Of a DNA stretch of 64,000 nt, positions 31,541-63,350 are shown one piece after another. Within the stretch, counting starts at the first letter, position 1; each line of letters opens with the position of its first letter. The stretch is from the NCBI GenBank assembly GCA_963727455.1, contig CAVSGG010000009.1:32001-96000 (forward strand). Reading direction: 5' to 3'. The DNA is from Candidatus Krumholzibacteriota bacterium (GTDB lineage: Bacteria > Krumholzibacteriota > Krumholzibacteriia > JAJRXK01). The position numbers were made by a program, and so were the translations under genes. Under the pieces are notes generated by a model. That model saw only the letters and a program-made list of their open reading frames with translations. It made no database searches and had not been told where the DNA came from.

Positions 31541-34192
31541 TCAGAACTCGGGGCCGAGCTGCACGAAGATAGTGCCAACGCGCCTTTCAGCCACCGCCCA
31601 GCACACACGAAACGGTCCCAAGGGAGTCTTCCACGCGAGATGGGTCCCCACTCCCGCCAGAGGAGAGGCGTGGCTCAGGCTCAGCTCGTCCCGCCAGCCG
31701 ACGGCAGCGGCAACCCCGCAGCGCAGAGTCGCGGCCAGCTGCCAATCCAGACCCCCGCGCAACCAAAGTAGACGAGAGGCGAGAATCTCCTCGCGCCTGA
31801 GGCCAAGCCAGCCGAAGGGTCCGCCGGCCCGTCCTTGCAAGCCGACAGCACGGCGGGGCGAGCCCTGCACGAATCCCAGCGCAGCCGTGGGGCGCATTCG
31901 TACCGGGCCCTTGGCCTCGGCGACCGCGCCCCCTTCCAGCCGCCAAAATCCCAGATCCCCCCATTCAGGAACTGCGCGCTGGTAGCACAGGCGAAAACCG
32001 GGTCCGCGCGAGTGAATCAGGCCAGCGTCGCCACCGCTCTGCAGCTCAGCCGTGAATCCAGTCAGAGTTTGCGGTCCCTGGGCTTCATTGAGAGCGAGCC
32101 GGCTCTCCCGATAGCTCAGAAGCCGGCGCGTCTGGAGTCCGACACGAAGTCCGATTCCAGGATGGCGCATGTGGAAGCCCAGCTGCAGGCCCAGCCCCTG
32201 CTCTTGAATCACCAATCGGTCCACGCGCGTCCCGCGCTGGTAGAGCCAGGGCCGGTCGCGCGCCCAGTCCAGGCTGGTCGTCAGGGAGAATTGTCCGCCG
32301 GGAGGGATACCCTGCTGCAGACGGAACGAGCCCGCCGCCTTGCGTTCGCTGTAGCGATAGCTGAGAGCGGCCTCACCCCCGCCCAGCGGCAGACGCGCCT
32401 GGTGGAGTCGGGCCAGGATGGCGGCGTCATCGTCGGTGATCACGTGGCCCGCGAGTTCCAGACGAGGCCTGTGGCGCAACTCGAGATGGGGCCGCAGCTG
32501 CACCGCGGTGGGCGAGCTGTCAGGCGCGGCGGCAGACGCGGCGGCAGACGTGGTGCCCGGCGCAGCGCCCGGCGCGGCGGCAGGCGCGACGGCAGACGTG
32601 GTGCCAGGCGCAGCGGCAGTCGCGGCGGACGCGTGGCCCCCAACGCGCTCGACATCGATCCAGGCGCTCTGGACCGCGGGACTGTGTTCGAGGGAGTTGA
32701 AGCGCCGGTAGACTTCGCGCAGCGGCAATTCATCGCCCACTTCGATCCCCAGCCGGCGACGCAGTTCCGCCACGCCGATGCCATCACCATCTGCGAGCTC
32801 CAGATCGTCCACTCGAATCCGCGGCCCCGTTTCGGCAATGCTTGGGCGCGATTCAACTCGCTGCGCGGGACCGACTTGCTGCTCGTCGTCAACTCGCTGC
32901 GCGGCGCTGACTCGCTGCGCGGGACCGACTTGCTGCTCGTCGTCAACTCGCTGCGCGGCGCTGGTAGGGGAAGACTGGGAGTTGGCAGAATGCCGCGCCG
33001 GATTCCGCAGGCTGCGCAGGGTATCCCGGCGCTGCGCGGCGAAGTCGTACCCGGTGCGGACGATTTCCTCGATTCGTCCAAAGTTCAAGCTCCTGTAGTT
33101 CTGCAACGGAATGTGCAGAACGACTTCCCCCGGCGCCGGCTCCACCAGATTACTCGGGTACTCCTGCAGCTCCATCGTGCGAATCCACATCTGGTACAGA
33201 TCTCCCGGACTCTTTCGATCTGGCAGCTGAGTGTTGCTGACGTCGATCACGAGGGAGTGGCGAAAGCCCAGGGCGCGCGCGAGTTCCACCGGATTGTTGA
33301 TCCTGAACCCGCCATCGACGAGCTCGCGGCCCTTCATGTGGATCGGTGGCAAGAGCAAGGGAATCGTCCCGCTGGCCTGCACCGCGCGCGCCAGTGAACC
33401 GCTGCGCAGAACCACGATCTGTGCGCTATTCAAGTCCACCGCCACCGCACGGAAGGGAATGGGAAGCCGATCGAAATCGTTATCGGCATAGAGAAGAGCA
33501 TCCGCGCTGAGCGATCCAATGAGTTGGGTGATCTTCCGCCCTCCCGATAGATTCCGCGGGGGAAGCGGCGGGAGGCGATCGAGCAAGAGGCTGAGCTGCG
33601 CCTCGGGCAGCTCGCGCCATCCTCCTTGAAGCTGTGCGGGAGCGAGCCGAGCATCGCTGAACAGCGAAAACCAGTCCTGCGATCGCACCATTTCATCGAG
33701 CTGGTCCGCCGTGTAGCCACAGGCGTAGAGCGCCCCCAGTACCGCCCCCATGCTACAGCCAACGATGAGCCCGGGGCGCAGGCCTTCCTCCTCCAGCACC
33801 TGCAGGACCCCGATCTCGGCGAAGCCGCGTGCTCCTCCTCCACCCAGAACGAGCGCGAAGGAGGTCGTGTCCGCCCTCGTCCAGTCGTGGATGGCCGCGA
33901 TCTCCGCGTGGACGGAAGCCGGCCCCGGAGCGCACAGGAGTACGGGGGGGCTTGAATCTTCGGAGGTACTGGAGGCGGAGGGGGAACTGGAGGCGGAGGG
34001 GGTGCTGGAGGCGGAGGGGGTACTGGAGCTCTGGGCGGCCGCCGGCGCGGCATGAGCCGAGGGAGAGATCGCCGCGCTGAACAAGACCGAAAGACAGATC
34101 GTCACGCTGAACAAGACCGACCCCAAGATCCGGCCGCGCGAACGGCTCCCCGCTCGGCCGGCACTCCTGAGATCACAAACCAGTTCGGGCAT
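31541..34192 (-). CDS. Patatin-like phospholipase with POTRA and Omp85-like barrel (PlpD / type Vd-like)
   Basis: LVLGGGGARG, GCSMG, VDGG, POTRA-like RRRLGIEVGDEL, C-terminal TPLGPFR...FVQLGPEF. Confidence 0.82.
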   Translation of the reverse strand: MPELVCDLRSAGRAGSRSRGRILGSVLFSVTICLSVLFSAAISPSAHAAPAAAQSSSTPSASSTPSASSSPSASSTSEDSSPPVLLCAPGPASVHAEIAAIHDWTRADTTSFALVLGGGGARGFAEIGVLQVLEEEGLRPGLIVGCSMGAVLGALYACGYTADQLDEMVRSQDWFSLFSDARLAPAQLQGGWRELPEAQLSLLLDRLPPLPPRNLSGGRKITQLIGSLSADALLYADNDFDRLPIPFRAVAVDLNSAQIVVLRSGSLARAVQASGTIPLLLPPIHMKGRELVDGGFRINNPVELARALGFRHSLVIDVSNTQLPDRKSPGDLYQMWIRTMELQEYPSNLVEPAPGEVVLHIPLQNYRSLNFGRIEEIVRTGYDFAAQRRDTLRSLRNPARHSANSQSSPTSAAQRVDDEQQVGPAQRVSAAQRVDDEQQVGPAQRVESRPSIAETGPRIRVDDLELADGDGIGVAELRRRLGIEVGDELPLREVYRRFNSLEHSPAVQSAWIDVERVGGHASAATAAAPGTTSAVAPAAAPGAAPGTTSAAASAAAPDSSPTAVQLRPHLELRHRPRLELAGHVITDDDAAILARLHQARLPLGGGEAALSYRYSERKAAGSFRLQQGIPPGGQFSLTTSLDWARDRPWLYQRGTRVDRLVIQEQGLGLQLGFHMRHPGIGLRVGLQTRRLLSYRESRLALNEAQGPQTLTGFTAELQSGGDAGLIHSRGPGFRLCYQRAVPEWGDLGFWRLEGGAVAEAKGPVRMRPTAALGFVQGSPRRAVGLQGRAGGPFGWLGLRREEILASRLLWLRGGLDWQLAATLRCGVAAAVGWRDELSLSHASPLAGVGTHLAWKTPLGPFRVCWAVAERRVGTIFVQLGPEF
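32856..32963. repeat. Perfect 54-bp in-frame tandem duplication inside the patatin gene
   Basis: ACTCGCTGCGCGGGACCGACTTGCTGCTCGTCGTCAACTCGCTGCGCGGCGCTG at 32856 and 32910 (SAAQRVDDEQQVGPAQRV x2). Confidence 0.9.
33967..34028. repeat. 18-bp tandem repeat (SSTPSA-like x3.5) in the patatin N-terminal linker
   Basis: nnCTGGAGGCGGAGGGGG units at 33967, 33985 and 34003, partial at 34021. Confidence 0.85.
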
Positions 34193-57400: not shown

Positions 57401-59008
57401 CTAGAAACGAAATACGCCGTAATCCGTTTTCTGCAAGGGCGCGTTGAATGACATCTCCAGGGATAGACCCAGAAGGTCACGCGTTTGCAGAGGGTCGATG
57501 ATTCCGTCGTCCCAAAGCCGCGCCGTCGAGTAATAGGGGGAGCTCTCCTGCGCATACTTGTCGAGAATGGGCTGCTTGAAAGCGTCTACCTCTTCCTGGG
57601 ACATGGACTCACCCTTGCGCGCGAGCTGCTCCTGTTTGACCGTGGCCAATACCCCCGCCGCCTGCTCACCACCCATGACACTGATACGGCTGCCGGGCCA
57701 CATGAAGAGGAGGCGCGGCTGGTACGCTCGCCCGCACATGCCGTAGTTTCCCGCCCCGTGACTGCCGCCGATGATGATGGTGAATTTGGGTACGGCGGCA
57801 TTGGCCACCGCGTTGACCATCTTGGCTCCGTCTTTGGCGATTCCGCCCTGCTCGTACTTCTTGCCGACCATGTAGCCGGTGATGTTCTGCAGAAAGAGGA
57901 GCGGGATTCCACGTGCGCAGCACAGTTGCACGAAGTGAGTGACCTTCAGCGCGCTCTCGCTGAAAAGAACTCCGTTGTTGGCGACGATCCCGAGTTCGTA
58001 ACCGTGCAAGCGGGCGAAACCGGTGACCACCGTCGTGCCGTAACGTTCCTTGAATTCGTGGAAACGCGAACCGTCGACCAGGCGCGCGATGACTTCGCGC
58101 ACTTCGAAGGGACGGCGCGGGTCCTCGGGCAGGATCCCCAATAGCTCTTCGGGGTCGAAATGCGGATCCTCGGGAGCTTGCCGCGGAACTGCCGCCTTCT
58201 TCACGGTGGCCAGGTTCTCCACCATGTTGCGAACGATACTCAGCGCGTGCGCATCATCGTTGGCGAGAGTGTCCGCTACCCCACTGATGCGCGTGTGTAC
58301 GTCTCCCCCACCGAGTTCCTCAGCGCTGACCTCCTCTCCGGTCGCGGCTTTGACCAGGGGGGGACCACCCAGGAAAATGGTGCCCTGCTCCTTCACGATC
58401 ACGACTTCGTCGCTCATGGCGGGGACGTAGGCTCCGCCGGCGGTGCACGAACCCAGGACGGCGGAAATCTGGGGAATGCCCCGGGCACTCATCTGCGCCT
58501 GATTGTAGAAAATGCGACCGAAGTGTTCACGATCGGGAAAAACCTCGGCCTGCAGCGGCAAAAAAGCGCCGCCGCTGTCCACCAGATAGACGCAGGGAAG
58601 GTGATTCTCCAGCGCAATCTCCTGGGCGCGCAGGTGTTTCTTGACGGTGAGCGGGTGATAGGTTCCCCCCTTCACCGTGGCATCGTTGGCGACGATCATC
58701 ACCTGACGTCCATGCAGGTTGCCGATGCCGGTCACGATCCCCGCGGCAGGGACCGGCGAGCGATACACTTGGTGCGCGGCCAGGGGCGACAATTCCAAGA
58801 AGGGGCTACCCTGATCCAGAAGAGCGTCGATCCGGTCGCGTACCAGCAGCTTTCCGCGGCTCTGATGGAGTTCTCGCGCCTTTTGGCTTCCGCCGAGCCG
58901 GACCTGGGCCAGAGCTTCCTTCAGCTCCTTGGCGCGGGCGCGGTTGACCTCTTGATTGCGCTTGAAGTCCGGCGAGTTGGGAAGAACGGCACTCGAGAGC
59001 CTGCGCAC
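57401..59008 (-). CDS. liuB: 3-methylcrotonyl-CoA carboxylase beta (carboxyltransferase) subunit
   Basis: [68 protein letters not shown]; GTG start after GGAGG. Confidence 0.9.
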
Positions 59009-59247
59009 GGCGAGCCTCCGGCTGAGGGGGTGAAAGTGGGTCCGCCATCGGCTCGCTTCGCCTTGCCGCCAGCGACCGCAAAGAAGCAGTGTAGAAGCCC
59101 TGCGGGCGCGCGTAAAGAGCCGCGAGGGACAGCCAGGAGGCTTCGTGATAGGCTGACGGTGTGCCCTGTGCGGCGAAAGGTACGAAACCGACATTGCGCT
59201 GGCGCGTATGGGTTCAGGAGCGCGCCGTTTTGCCTTGGGGAGGATCC

Positions 59248-61245
59248 GTGATCGACCGCGAAGAGGAAATGCCCTTCACCGGCGAGTACCTCGACTTTGC
59301 TCATGCGAGCACGGACGATCTGCAGACGCGCATTTTCGAGCTGCTCACCCTCGTGGAAACCAGCCGAGAGCTGCTGCGTGCCCACGACGCGGACGACGTG
59401 GCGCGCCGGGTTCTGCTGTCGGTGATCGGAGTGCTGGGCGCCTCCTCCGCCAGTGTCCTCCGCCGAGATCCCATCGGTGAGCGCATGGAACTCTTGGTGC
59501 ACGCGGGACTGGACATCGAGGAAAGGCTCGAATTCCATCTTCAAAGCGCGATGGTGGAGGCTTTCGAACAAAAGAGCGATGGACGACCCTTCCGCGTCGA
59601 CCGGGACCTCGTCCAGGGGCCGGCTCGCGATTTCCTGCACTCCTACGACACGGTGTTGGAAACTCTCGACGCGGCGGTGGTGTGCCCTCTCATCGGGCGT
59701 CAGGGGCTTTTCGGTTTCCTCCTCTTGGGACGCCGCCTCTTGAGCGAGGGATACTCCTCCAACGATCTGGAGGTCTTCGCGAGCTTGGCCGAGCTCTACA
59801 CCCTGGCGCTGGAACGCGGCGCCGGACCCGCCCCTATCCTGGGACGCGCGCCCGCGGAAGTACCGCGCGAAGTCTCTCTGGCGCTGCGCGAACTGCGCGA
59901 ATTGTATCCTCCGCTGCGAGGAATCCTCGGCGAGAGCGAGGCCATCCTCCAGCTCTTCCGTGACATGGTGCAACTCGCGCCGAGCCGCGCCACCGTTCTC
60001 ATTCAGGGAGAGAGCGGCACGGGAAAGGAGGTGGTGGCGCGCGCCATCCACGAACTCTCGGCCCGGCAGGGAGGCCCACTGGAGATCGTCGACTGTTCGT
60101 CGATCCCGCGCGAGCTCATCGAGAGCGAGCTCTTCGGGCACGTACGCGGCGCCTTCACCGGCGCGGTGCGCGATCGGCGCGGCGCCTTCGAGTTGGCGCA
60201 CCGCGGAACCCTGTTCCTGGACGAAATCGGAGACATGAGCCTTGCTTCGCAGACGCGTCTCTTGCGCGCGCTGCAGGAGGGGCGCTTCCGTCCGGTGGGC
60301 GGGGAGAAGACGAGATCGGTGGACGTTCGGGTGATCGCGGCCACCAACGTCGATCTGAGAGAAGCCGTCGCGCGCGGGGAATTCCGCAAGGACCTCTTCT
60401 ATCGGATTCAGGTCTATCCCCTCAGGCTGCCCCCCCTGCGCGAGCGGGTGGGTGACATCGCCATCTTGAGCCGCGCCTTCCTCAAGCGCTTCTACGCGGA
60501 CTTCGGGTTGAGGGAACCCGTGGTCGATCCGGAAGTCATCACAGCCTTGCAGGCCCATCTCTTTCCGGGAAACGTACGCGAACTCCAGAACATGGTCGAA
60601 GCTCTGGCCATCAGAAGCCGTGACGAGCGCCACGTGCGACTCGAACATCTGCGGCGCGTATTCGCGAGTCAGCAATTGACCCAGCGCCCTCTCGCGGATG
60701 CGCGCCCCGAGGAGAAATCGGCGGGCTCCTTAGCGAAAGAAGCCGCCGAAAGTGAAAGGGCCGGGCGGAAATTCCCCGTGGGTGACGCGGCGGGCGAGGC
60801 CGTGGCGCGCGCGCAGGAACTCACTCCCCTCAGTGACGACGCCGGTGAGGCCGTGGCGCGGCAGATCCTCGACGCCTGGCGCCAGACCGGCTTCAATCTG
60901 CTGGAAGCCAGTCGCCGTTTGAAATCGCTCCGGGCGCAGGGGGAGAACGTGTCCATCGTGGATCGAGTCCAAATGAACCACTACCTCGACGGGGAAACTC
61001 TCAAGGCCTTCGCGGCCAGTGGATCCACTGCGGATGTCGTCGCGATGCTGAGCTCGGGCTCCGAGCCACGTCACCGCGTCGCCCGCCGCACTTCCCGCCT
61101 GTTGCAACAGGCCCTGCAAGCTCTACGGGAAGATTCGTTGCACGAAACTTTCCAGCGCCTGCCGGCTCAGTACGAACCCGTTTTGCGCAAGCTGCAGAGC
61201 AAGGGCGCCGCCTGGATGCAGAAGCATCTGCAGACGGACTCCTGA
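59248..61245 (+). CDS. sigma54-dependent transcriptional activator (GAF + AAA+ domain)
   Basis: [57 protein letters not shown]; GAF-like N-terminus. Confidence 0.92.
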
Positions 61246-61310: not shown

Positions 61311-61355
61311 CAAAGAAAAGCGGGGCGCCCTCCCTGAAAGGGACGCCCCGCTTTT
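61311..61355. terminator. Bidirectional intrinsic terminator
   Basis: AAAAGCGGGGCG(61316-61327)...CGCCCCGCTTTT(61344-61355); the minus strand is followed by TTTTCTTTG. Confidence 0.85.
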
Positions 61356-61701
61356 CGGGACTGGCGACGGGACCAATTCGGTCGGGCACGATACTCCCTC
61401 GCCAAGAGCACCGGCCACTTCGTCGTCAGCTCGGGGTTCGCCGATGCCGGGCGGCATCTTGCGGGAGTTCTCGCCAACTCCCTGGAACCCATTCTCAGCA
61501 ACGGAACCTTCGATTCGCTCCAGCGCGATCCCCCATGGGGAACGCCGGTCGAGTGGGGTCGTGGGGTGACCGGCGTCGCGCTGCCTTGTCGAGCTCCCTT
61601 TGGGGCTCCGTCTCCTCTCCTTCCACACTTCTCACGCCCTTCTCCCGCGGGCTTGCCGCGGAGTCCAGGGTCGTGAGTCAGAGGTGTCCGTGTGGCATCG
61701 C
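61312..61701 (-). ncRNA. Candidate sigma54-dependent structured non-coding RNA (~385 nt), no family recognised
   Basis: Bounded by a -24/-12 box and a U-tailed terminator; dense nested inverted repeats; no credible ORF ends before the terminator. Confidence 0.5.
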
Positions 61702-61710
61702 CCTCTCCCT

Positions 61711-61728
61711 AAGCAGGGCCGATGCCAA
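61711..61728 (-). promoter_or_regulatory. sigma54 (-24/-12) promoter
   Basis: Minus strand TTGGCATCGGCCCTGCTT, exact GG-N10-GC spacing. Confidence 0.65.
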
Positions 61729-61752
61729 CTTTTCTCCTCTTTGGACAACAAA

Positions 61753-61867
61753 GATCAAGCCATTGAAATACAATGACTTAGTGGTATAGCTCCTTCGGAA
61801 CCCCTCTGAATGTTGTTGTGAATTCCCAGCCGGTTCTCTGCAGTTTTTGTTGTTGCATGTTGTGACA
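61753..61867. promoter_or_regulatory. IHF-like site and candidate enhancer (UAS) for the sigma54 promoter
   Basis: GATCAAGCCATTG (61753-61765) resembles WATCAAnnnnTTR in an AT-rich tract; TGTTGCA-n3-TGTGACA (TGT-N11-ACA, 61851-61867) lies ~150 bp upstream of the predicted start. Confidence 0.45.
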
Positions 61868-61970
61868 CATCAAAATTGAACAACATAAATGATGTCAAAG
61901 CTGCTAGCCGACTGCAAGAGACGTATTTGCGGGCTTTCTTGGGGCTTGGGGTACTGCTACTCTGGGAAGC

Positions 61971-63350
61971 ATGAGCAAGGCCTCCACACTCTGGCACGGC
62001 ATCGATACCCTGGTCTGCATGGACGCCCCGCGGCGGGTACTGCACGGCGCCTGGATCCGCAGCGAGGGTCCGCGCGTGCTGGAGCTGGGCGAAGGGAAGC
62101 CAGAGCCACGAGAGGGCGAAAGCGCGGTGGATTTGGGCGGGGGAATCGTGATCCCGGGCCTGGTGAACGTCCACCACCACCTCTGCCAGAACCTGACGCG
62201 CGCCTACGGACCCGCGGCCGACGCCGAGCTCTTCCAGTGGCTCACCACGCTCTATCCGATTTGGGCCGGCTTCACGCCGGAAAATCTGGATCTCGCGGCC
62301 CGTGTGGGATTCGCCGAGCTGTTGCTTTCGGGCTGCACCACCACGAGCGACCACCACTACCTCTTCCCGCGCGCGGGCGCATCCGAACTCTTGGATGCCT
62401 CCTTTCACGCCGCGCAGAGGCTGCGCATCCGCTTTCATGGCACTCGCGGATCGATGAGCGTGGACGAATCGCAGGGCGGTCTACCTCCGCGTTCGTGCAC
62501 CCAGGATGAGAGCATGATCCTGCTCGACAGCGAGCGCGTCATCAAACGCTGGCACGACAGGGCGCGCTACTCGATGCACCAGGTCGGGCTGGCCCCCTGT
62601 GCCCCCTTCTCGGTGAGTCAGGATCTCATGCGCGAAACCGCGCGTCTGGCGCGCGCGGAGGGAGTCCGCCTGCACACCCATCTCGCGGAAACCCGAGACG
62701 AAACGGCGTACTGTTTGGAACACTTCTCCTGTCGTCCGCTGGACTTCCTCGAGGAAGTGGAATGGGTCGGCGACGACGTTTGGCTGGCACACGGTATCTG
62801 GTTCGAGGAGAGCGAAATCGACCGCCTGGGAAAGGCGGCAGTGGGGATCGCCCACTGCCCCACCTCCAACATGCGCCTGGGTTCGGGAGTCTGTCCGGTT
62901 CCCGAATTGCGCGCGGCCGGAGTCGCGGTCGGTTTGGGAGTGGATGGGAGCGCGAGCAACGACACGGCGCACATGCTCAACGAGGCGCGGATGGCCCTGT
63001 ACCTGCGCCGACTGGAAAGTGGTGCGGCAGCCATGACCGCAATGGAGGCGCTCGAGCTGGCCACGCTGGGCGGTGCTCAGTGCCTGGGACGAGAGGAGCT
63101 GGGCTGGCTCGGAAAGGACTCCGCCTGCGATTTCGCGCACTATGATCTCGACGGGGAGATCGCGGCCAGCGGCGCCCACGATCCCCTGGCCGCGCTTCTC
63201 TTTTGCGGTCCCCTGCGCGCCAAGTCCGTCGTGGTCAATGGAGATCAGGTGGTGAGGGAGGGCCGCGTCCTCAGCGAGGATCTGGAGACGCTACTGCCAG
63301 CGCATCGCGAGGCGGCGCGGCAGCTGGTGCAGGCCGCGCGCAGCTCCTGA
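61971..63350 (+). CDS. 8-oxoguanine deaminase / amidohydrolase family
   Basis: PGLVNVHHHLCQNLTRA, ELLLSGCTTTSDHHY, APCAPFSVS, LHTHLAET, AHCPTSNMRLGSG, GLGVDGSASND. Confidence 0.9.
   Translation: MSKASTLWHGIDTLVCMDAPRRVLHGAWIRSEGPRVLELGEGKPEPREGESAVDLGGGIVIPGLVNVHHHLCQNLTRAYGPAADAELFQWLTTLYPIWAGFTPENLDLAARVGFAELLLSGCTTTSDHHYLFPRAGASELLDASFHAAQRLRIRFHGTRGSMSVDESQGGLPPRSCTQDESMILLDSERVIKRWHDRARYSMHQVGLAPCAPFSVSQDLMRETARLARAEGVRLHTHLAETRDETAYCLEHFSCRPLDFLEEVEWVGDDVWLAHGIWFEESEIDRLGKAAVGIAHCPTSNMRLGSGVCPVPELRAAGVAVGLGVDGSASNDTAHMLNEARMALYLRRLESGAAAMTAMEALELATLGGAQCLGREELGWLGKDSACDFAHYDLDGEIAASGAHDPLAALLFCGPLRAKSVVVNGDQVVREGRVLSEDLETLLPAHREAARQLVQAARSS

Follow-up and report, generated by a model that had tools for sequence, protein, structure and literature searches.

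A sigma54-type structured RNA gene convergent with its putative activator gene in Candidatus Krumholzibacteriota

Locus organization

The window analysed here is a stretch of 64,000 nucleotides (nt) from a Candidatus Krumholzibacteriota bacterium (G000:C9:32001-96000, that is, positions 32001 to 96000 of contig C9 in the source assembly G000). Within it, a gap of 725 bp separates a 694-codon frame (59161-61245, plus strand), which encodes a sigma54 enhancer-binding protein (hereafter the activator), from an amidohydrolase gene (61971-63350, plus strand). This gap houses, on the minus strand, a stand-alone, multi-domain structured non-coding RNA gene (61312-61701). An initial annotation, made from the sequence alone, had proposed an undescribed structured RNA at this place, and each element that it named was found again, no more than 3 nt from the position it gave. 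The parts of the RNA gene and its upstream region are as follows.

61312-61701, minus strand: RNA gene of about 390 nt; predicted transcription start (+1) about 12 nt downstream of the GC of the -12 element, 3' end in the U-tract
61711-61728, minus strand: sigma54-type -24/-12 box TTGGCATCGGCCCTGCTT (TTGGCAT-N5-CTGCTT), with correctly spaced GG and GC doublets
61745-61886, minus strand: putative upstream activating region, a cluster of ACAACA/TGTTGT/CACAAC half-sites
61851-61867: TGT-N11-ACA, within the half-site cluster
about 61756-61768, minus strand: AT-rich stretch resembling a site for integration host factor (IHF)
61584-61701, minus strand: variable 5' domain, with nested hairpins CCACAC/GUGUGG, CUCACG/CGUGAG and CCGCGG/CCGCGG in the minimum free energy fold
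61677-61697, minus strand: 6-codon frame, MPHGHL
61521-61583, minus strand: three-way junction 1; the sequence ACCCCACGACCCCACUC, with CCCCAC twice, forms one of its hairpin loops (61551-61567)
61434-61490, minus strand: three-way junction 2, with hairpin A (61463-61482) and its hexaloop GGCGAG (61470-61475)
61443-61458, minus strand: second hairpin of junction 2, GAUGCC-GCCC-GGCAUC
61361-61429, minus strand: multi-stem domain 3, closing stem CUGACGAC/GUCGCCAG
about 61389-61413, minus strand: hairpin B, in domain 3, with loop GGCGAG (61398-61403)
61312-61351, minus strand: intrinsic terminator, a 13-pair G+C-rich hairpin (61320-61351) followed by UUUUCUUU (61312-61319)

The AT-rich stretch, to which IHF may bind, had been placed by the initial annotation at 61753-61765, slightly off the position at which it was found. 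A T-run also follows the terminator hairpin on the plus strand, and the same hairpin may therefore end the transcript of the activator gene as well.

Copies of the RNA and their distribution

Homologues were sought in a sample of 151 genomes of the phylum by DNA search and with a covariance model (R1). Since a first alignment of 275 nt misaligned the two most distant sequences, the model was built on the 191 positions of the 3' domain only. Ten copies were recovered, two of them in the source assembly and one in each of eight of the nine other genomes of its family (f1). Neither R1 nor the DNA search found a copy in the remaining f1 genome (G003, 93% complete), and there is no real copy in the 141 genomes of other families. 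A single match outside the family (G131) was rejected, since it is only a terminator that follows a peptidase gene. A pattern scan of species-representative genomes returned 10 matches, of which 4 are the RNA, all in Krumholzibacteriota bins; the other six are chance occurrences in coding DNA of Verrucomicrobiae, Lentisphaeria, Victivallales, Bradyrhizobium, a Myxococcales bin and Neolewinella. The same pattern, scanned for in Joint Genome Institute (JGI) metagenomes, gave 18 loci, three of them real according to the covariance model. The RNA is thus narrow in range and rare in the genome and metagenome data searched. In a three-way alignment, sharp conservation starts at about the -24/-12 box and stops just past the terminator, and weaker, patchy similarity reaches about 150 bp further upstream.

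The two copies in the source assembly (3.46 Mb, 88.85% complete, contamination estimate 6.68%) lie in collinear contig regions, C9:12-229,000 and C8:260,690-498,684, that share about 82-88% identity and amount to roughly 7% of the assembly. Because the size of this stretch matches the contamination estimate, the C8 copy is most likely an orthologue from a co-binned congener and not a paralogue, and the bin probably mixes two congeneric populations. Other apparent duplicates of window genes may likewise be orthologues from a second organism.

Fold, covariation and coding potential

The initial annotation had cautioned that a high G+C content makes hairpins cheap. Against dinucleotide shuffles, the 391 nt from promoter to terminator fold on the minus strand at -195.5 kcal/mol with z = -5.55, compared with z = -2.64 for the plus strand of the same interval. 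Many G-U pairs of the fold are compatible with the minus strand only.

The comparison of homologous intergenic regions proposed there also speaks for a conserved fold. RNAalifold predicts 59 consensus pairs for the ten-sequence alignment, 26 of them with compensatory change, and 90.6% of the consensus cells are paired, compared with 82.9% in shuffles. Shuffled alignments have 13.0±2.2 pairs changed on both sides (0 of 500 reach 26), a control that inflates the significance because the ten sequences are kin; the fairer yardstick is given by slid controls, in which the partners are moved by 1-3 columns, and these yield 5-14 compensatory pairs, clearly fewer than the 26 of the true fold. The compensatory pairs occur in both of the junctions that had been described from the single sequence: junction 1 corresponds to consensus helices 1 and 2 (three compensatory pairs each) and junction 2 to helices 4-6 (five, one and three, respectively). 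Domain 3 comprises helices 7-10, and the terminator, helix 11, covaries as well (13 pairs, 5 compensatory).

Substitutions between close copies are spread evenly over position modulo 3 (20/21/20 and 24/28/23), so that the codon periodicity named in the initial annotation as a sign against an RNA is not seen, and close copies are separated by indels of 1-2 nt. For these two reasons the interval 61312-61701 is regarded as non-coding, and no protein is encoded by it. The MPHGHL frame is present as first described, and it is kept in the nearest relatives only.

Conserved hairpin-loop motifs

The most repeated conserved motif of the RNA is GGCGAG, which occurs in two to five copies per RNA and is displayed in hairpin loops at three conserved hairpins. 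The hexaloops are usually closed by U-A or U-G. In the ten-copy alignment the loop core UGGCGA of hairpin A is invariant, as is GGCGAG at its loop position in hairpin B; the terminator loop is GGCGAG in seven of the ten copies, the window copy not being among them. Two copies (G008 and G009) carry additional GGCGAG motifs in the 5' region, in what by eye resemble hairpin loops. Occurrences of GGCGAG with at least three contiguous flanking pairs number 14 in the ten RNAs, compared with 0.2 in shuffles, and the loops stay fixed while the surrounding stems covary. The GGCGAG hairpin-loop motif was absent from the initial annotation.

A second motif, CCCCAY or CCUCAY, is found in the junction 1 loop (helix 2) of all ten copies. 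When the source genome was scanned for hairpins with a GGCGAG hexaloop, with a crude coding mask that was uninformative at the high G+C content of this genome, 19 with at least six flanking pairs were recovered, and only the two RNA copies share the form.

Promoter and upstream repeats

A box of the form TGGCA[CT]-N5-NTGC is present in all ten copies, with 182-245 nt between it and the conserved 3' domain downstream, so that the spacing recognized in the single sequence is accompanied by conservation in relatives. Only 51 such boxes (TGGCAYN5NTGC) exist on both strands of the 3.46-Mb assembly. The assembly also contains rpoN, the gene for sigma54 itself, recognized by Sigma54_DBD (C8:25937-26407, 217.8 bits). 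Taken together, the z-score, the rarity of the box, its conservation and a covariation above that of the controls indicate that fold and promoter are more than chance.

Several ACAACA/TGTTGT/CACAAC half-sites lie upstream of every copy. The region upstream of the window RNA holds five, compared with none in 4658 of 5000 random windows of 190 nt, and nowhere else in the assembly do four or more of them fall within 130 nt. Of the 51 boxes, all but those of the two RNA copies have at most one half-site upstream. The TGT-N11-ACA palindrome, singled out in the initial annotation, is indeed present, and it proves to be one instance of this cluster, which is the conserved feature. Because the repeat cluster is found at no other promoter of the assembly, activator and RNA look like a dedicated two-gene module, in which the activator would drive the RNA promoter and perhaps nothing else. 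At the other end of the gene, the terminator hairpin and U-tract are kept across the ten copies, with U-tracts of varying quality.

The convergent activator

59161-61245, plus strand: sigma54 enhancer-binding protein with a weak GAF domain, an AAA+ domain with GAFTGA and a predicted helix-turn-helix with helical extension
60691-61242, plus strand: C-terminal region of the activator, residues 511-694, conserved across families f1 and f3

The activator matches the Pfam families Sigma54_activat (1.5e-67) and then AAA_lid_14, with GAF_2 below the cut-off, and GAFTGA is present in its translation. None of the NCBIfam equivalogs listed (best 25 of 26 matches), NifA, NorR and NtrC among them, is matched at or above its cut-off. 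An orthologous activator lies tail-to-tail with the RNA in all ten copies, with the terminator hairpin between the two genes, which in those copies that were examined lie some tens of bp apart. Moreover, the activator C-terminal domain and the RNA co-occur in the same eight of the nine other f1 genomes, and G003 lacks both. Convergence and co-occurrence lend comparative support to the early suggestion that the RNA is driven by its neighbour, and it probably is.

The C-terminal region has no match to Pfam HTH_8. AlphaFold models the last 200 residues as an all-helical domain, with confidence over residues 65-200. Foldseek found no match to this model at E <= 0.001, and VIA-align gave a best Z of 5.1, with the NtrC1 DNA-binding domain at Z 4.0 (root-mean-square deviation of 2.2 over 46 residues). 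The model thus consists of a part that weakly resembles NtrC1, followed by a helical extension of about 80 residues, which suggests that the domain holds a helix-turn-helix.

The longest frame of the activator opens at a GTG that overlaps a divergent carboxyltransferase gene (57401-59194, minus strand). Its true start is likely the methionine at residue 37 (59269), which is preferred because it fits the lengths of the orthologues better. The amidohydrolase gene on the other side, divergent from the RNA, matches the NCBIfam model for 8-oxoguanine deaminase (620 bits, cut-off 532 bits); as it keeps this place within the genus only, it probably does not belong to the module. In another genome, a paralogous activator (locus L075, G005:C26:19891-23256) is followed by a frame (positions about 230-770 of the locus) in which a unit of about 33 nt is repeated many times in tandem, encoding PKQIASLA-like peptides; no RNA of the present kind was found at that locus.

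A sister module in family f3

Weak matches to the activator C-terminal domain led to loci in a second family (f3), where an orthologous activator is convergent with another RNA. These loci have a sigma54 box, an upstream cluster of TGATTCATCA-type repeats, different in sequence from those of f1, a terminator and an RNA of about 255 nt. The f3 RNA was found in four of seven f3 genomes by DNA search and in one more by eye, at the following positions.

L072:1205-1459, plus strand: f3 RNA
L071:1181-1452, plus strand: f3 RNA
L073:1946-2204, minus strand: f3 RNA
L077:1492-1757, plus strand: f3 RNA
L079:1320-1600, minus strand: f3 RNA

The five sequences support 61 consensus pairs, 14 of them compensatory. 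The f3 RNA was not detected by R1 and cannot be aligned with the f1 RNA, and it has no Rfam match. It does have a hairpin loop with CCCCAC, and GCGAG occurs in it three times. Because orthologous activators in both families face a sigma54 RNA, the pairing of activator and RNA appears to be older than the split between f1 and f3, with the two loop motifs as what persisted.

Proposed mechanism and alternative explanations

These observations lead us to favour, as the reading with the better chance of being right, a dedicated RNA module of about 390 nt that is driven by sigma54 and the activator and acts in trans via its loop motifs. Some signal sensed by the GAF domain would cause the activator to fire; the activator would then bind the ACAACA/TGTTGT cluster, about 80-170 bp upstream, and activate sigma54-RNA polymerase at the -24/-12 box. 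The intrinsic terminator would end the transcript, and the RNA would work in trans through its hairpin loops, the two to five GGCGAG loops and the CCCCAC loop. What the data establish is the RNA gene with its fold, a promoter and a terminator conserved along with it, and the tie to the activator; the action in trans and the drive by the neighbouring activator are inferred. As to what the RNA may do, the most likely mechanism, held tentatively, is that it serves as a decoy with several sites and titrates an RNA-binding protein, in the manner of CrcZ or GlmY; this is favoured because one invariant loop motif recurs, because the RNA is large and because CrcZ and GlmY set a precedent. Beyond decoy and base pairing, the RNA could do both together or something else.

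Several points weigh against this module as proposed. Neither a protein partner nor an mRNA target came to light, and no search for targets was made. The Pfam families of CsrA and Hfq were not found in the source assembly (88.85% complete), which counts against the decoy in particular, and the genome scan for hairpins showed no further UUGGCGAGA-type hairpins that could serve as decoy competitors. The 5' domain has no consensus structure; it aligns poorly across the family and is conserved in the closest relatives only. The U-tract after the terminator hairpin is weak in the G008 and G009 copies. To these come the kinship of the aligned sequences, mentioned above, and the predicted nature of the start, the 3' end and the expression of the RNA gene; binding of the ACAACA repeats by the neighbouring activator is suggested by their co-conservation only.

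A possible, rather unlikely alternative is a base-pairing small RNA, in which the CCCCAC loop would be the seed for G-rich sites (e.g. GUGGGG) in or near ribosome-binding sites and the rest of the molecule a scaffold. C-rich loops act as seeds in other small RNAs, and the persistence of CCCCAY or CCUCAY in the loop of the covarying helix 2 in all ten copies, together with the return of CCCCAC in the otherwise different f3 RNA, fits such a role. For a small RNA that acts by pairing, however, it is long and ornate, its most repeated invariant motif is GGCGAG and not the C-rich loop, and pairing targets were neither found nor searched for. That Hfq was not found in the source assembly is a weak point against pairing, since many bacteria pair RNAs without Hfq.

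A bolder extension of the decoy model, which we regard as speculative and unlikely, would make the module a lineage-specific global post-transcriptional switch, in which a sigma54-gated RNA titrates an undescribed RNA-binding protein via the GGCGAG loops. The module would be old and would have split into two unalignable RNA types, with the loop motifs and the activator C-terminal domain kept. In a still bolder variant the RNA would interact with sigma54 itself, an idea raised by the likeness of the YUUGGCGAG loops to the -24 element (TTGGCA); 6S RNA is known to interact with the sigma70 holoenzyme.

The convergence in all ten copies, with a terminator hairpin between the genes and T-runs on both strands, would also suit an action in cis, in which the convergent activator is tuned by transcription collision, or by antisense transcripts that read through the shared terminator, and the RNA has no role in trans. 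This is very unlikely, given that interference needs neither some 390 nt of covarying structure nor invariant loop motifs and that the RNA does not overlap the coding sequence of the activator. It is highly improbable, too, that the interval is a small protein gene or a chance field of GC-rich hairpins without function: high G+C content does bring long open frames on both strands along with cheap hairpins, but the lack of codon periodicity, the frame-breaking indels of 1-2 nt and the loss of the 6-codon frame beyond the nearest relatives speak against the former, and the covariation and the sharp conservation boundaries against the latter.

That the locus is a diverged form of a housekeeping RNA or of some other known RNA (RNase P RNA, transfer-messenger RNA (tmRNA), 6S RNA, a riboswitch leader or the guide RNA of a mobile element) is scarcely credible, even with a size near that of RNase P RNA and no RF00010 match in the source assembly: a canonical RNase P RNA (RF00010) is found elsewhere, at 273-302 bits, in all nine other genomes of the family, eight of which also have the present RNA; tmRNA and 6S RNA are located elsewhere in the source assembly; there is no same-strand gene downstream, which excludes a leader or riboswitch; and no transposase, reverse transcriptase or Cas domain was seen in those flanking genes that were scanned. 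Rfam 15 gave no matches at gathering scores in the whole window or in nine homologous loci, and searches in E-value mode returned only chance microRNA matches on the terminator hairpin and others far under the gathering scores. RNase P RNA is likely missing from the source assembly through its completeness of 88.85%.

Relation to known systems

CrcZ is about 400 nt long, its gene adjoins cbrB, and its motifs are A-rich and single-stranded. In Pseudomonas, according to a published account (PMC8871633), CbrB activates CrcZ and CrcY, which sequester Crc/Hfq. CrcZ shares with the proposed module a sigma54 promoter controlled by an enhancer-binding protein, as well as the sequestration of a protein via repeated motifs. 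However, the RNA has no sequence or structure match in the Rfam cmscan, the library of which presumably includes the CrcZ model, and it carries GGCGAG hairpin loops and, on inspection of its sequence, no A-rich repeats. The activator differs from CbrB in having a GAF sensor and not a receiver domain, the two genes are convergent, and Hfq was not found in the source assembly. A functional analogy to CrcZ may hold even though these marks of a CrcZ-type RNA are absent.

GlmY of enterobacteria is a sigma54-dependent small RNA, encoded beside the GlrR operon, that acts as a decoy for RapZ; it is a short RNA with a single decoy site, and its partner RNA, GlmZ, is a homologue. The window RNA gave no Rfam match, and the GlrR model scores 218.9 bits on the activator, compared with a cut-off of 763 bits. 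Qrr1 of Vibrio is likewise sigma54-dependent and is encoded beside LuxO, a response regulator; the Qrr RNAs are Hfq-dependent pairing RNAs of about 100 nt, and the LuxO model scores 261.2 bits on the activator, compared with a cut-off of 800 bits. The sponge RNAs CsrB, RsmY and RsmZ share with the present RNA the display of one short motif many times in hairpin loops. Their loops carry GGA, whereas here they carry GGCGAG; they are, to our knowledge, not sigma54-dependent, and the CsrA family was not found in the source assembly, which is incomplete.

Significance

The locus represents an RNA family that had not been described before and that has a sigma54 activator of its own, within a kind of system that is already known. 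As far as we know, the Krumholzibacteriota are represented by metagenome bins only, and regulatory RNA is not a topic in the titles and abstract openings of that part of the literature naming the phylum which was considered. The pairing of an activator with a sigma54-dependent RNA, known from Proteobacteria, thus also occurs in a distant phylum, with an RNA that is much larger and more ornate. The predicted DNA-binding region at the C-terminus of the activator, which lacks a clear structural match, is of interest in itself. For the family, the locus offers an RNA of a defined promoter class with its dedicated activator, two loop motifs that are conserved and a fold that lends itself to testing.

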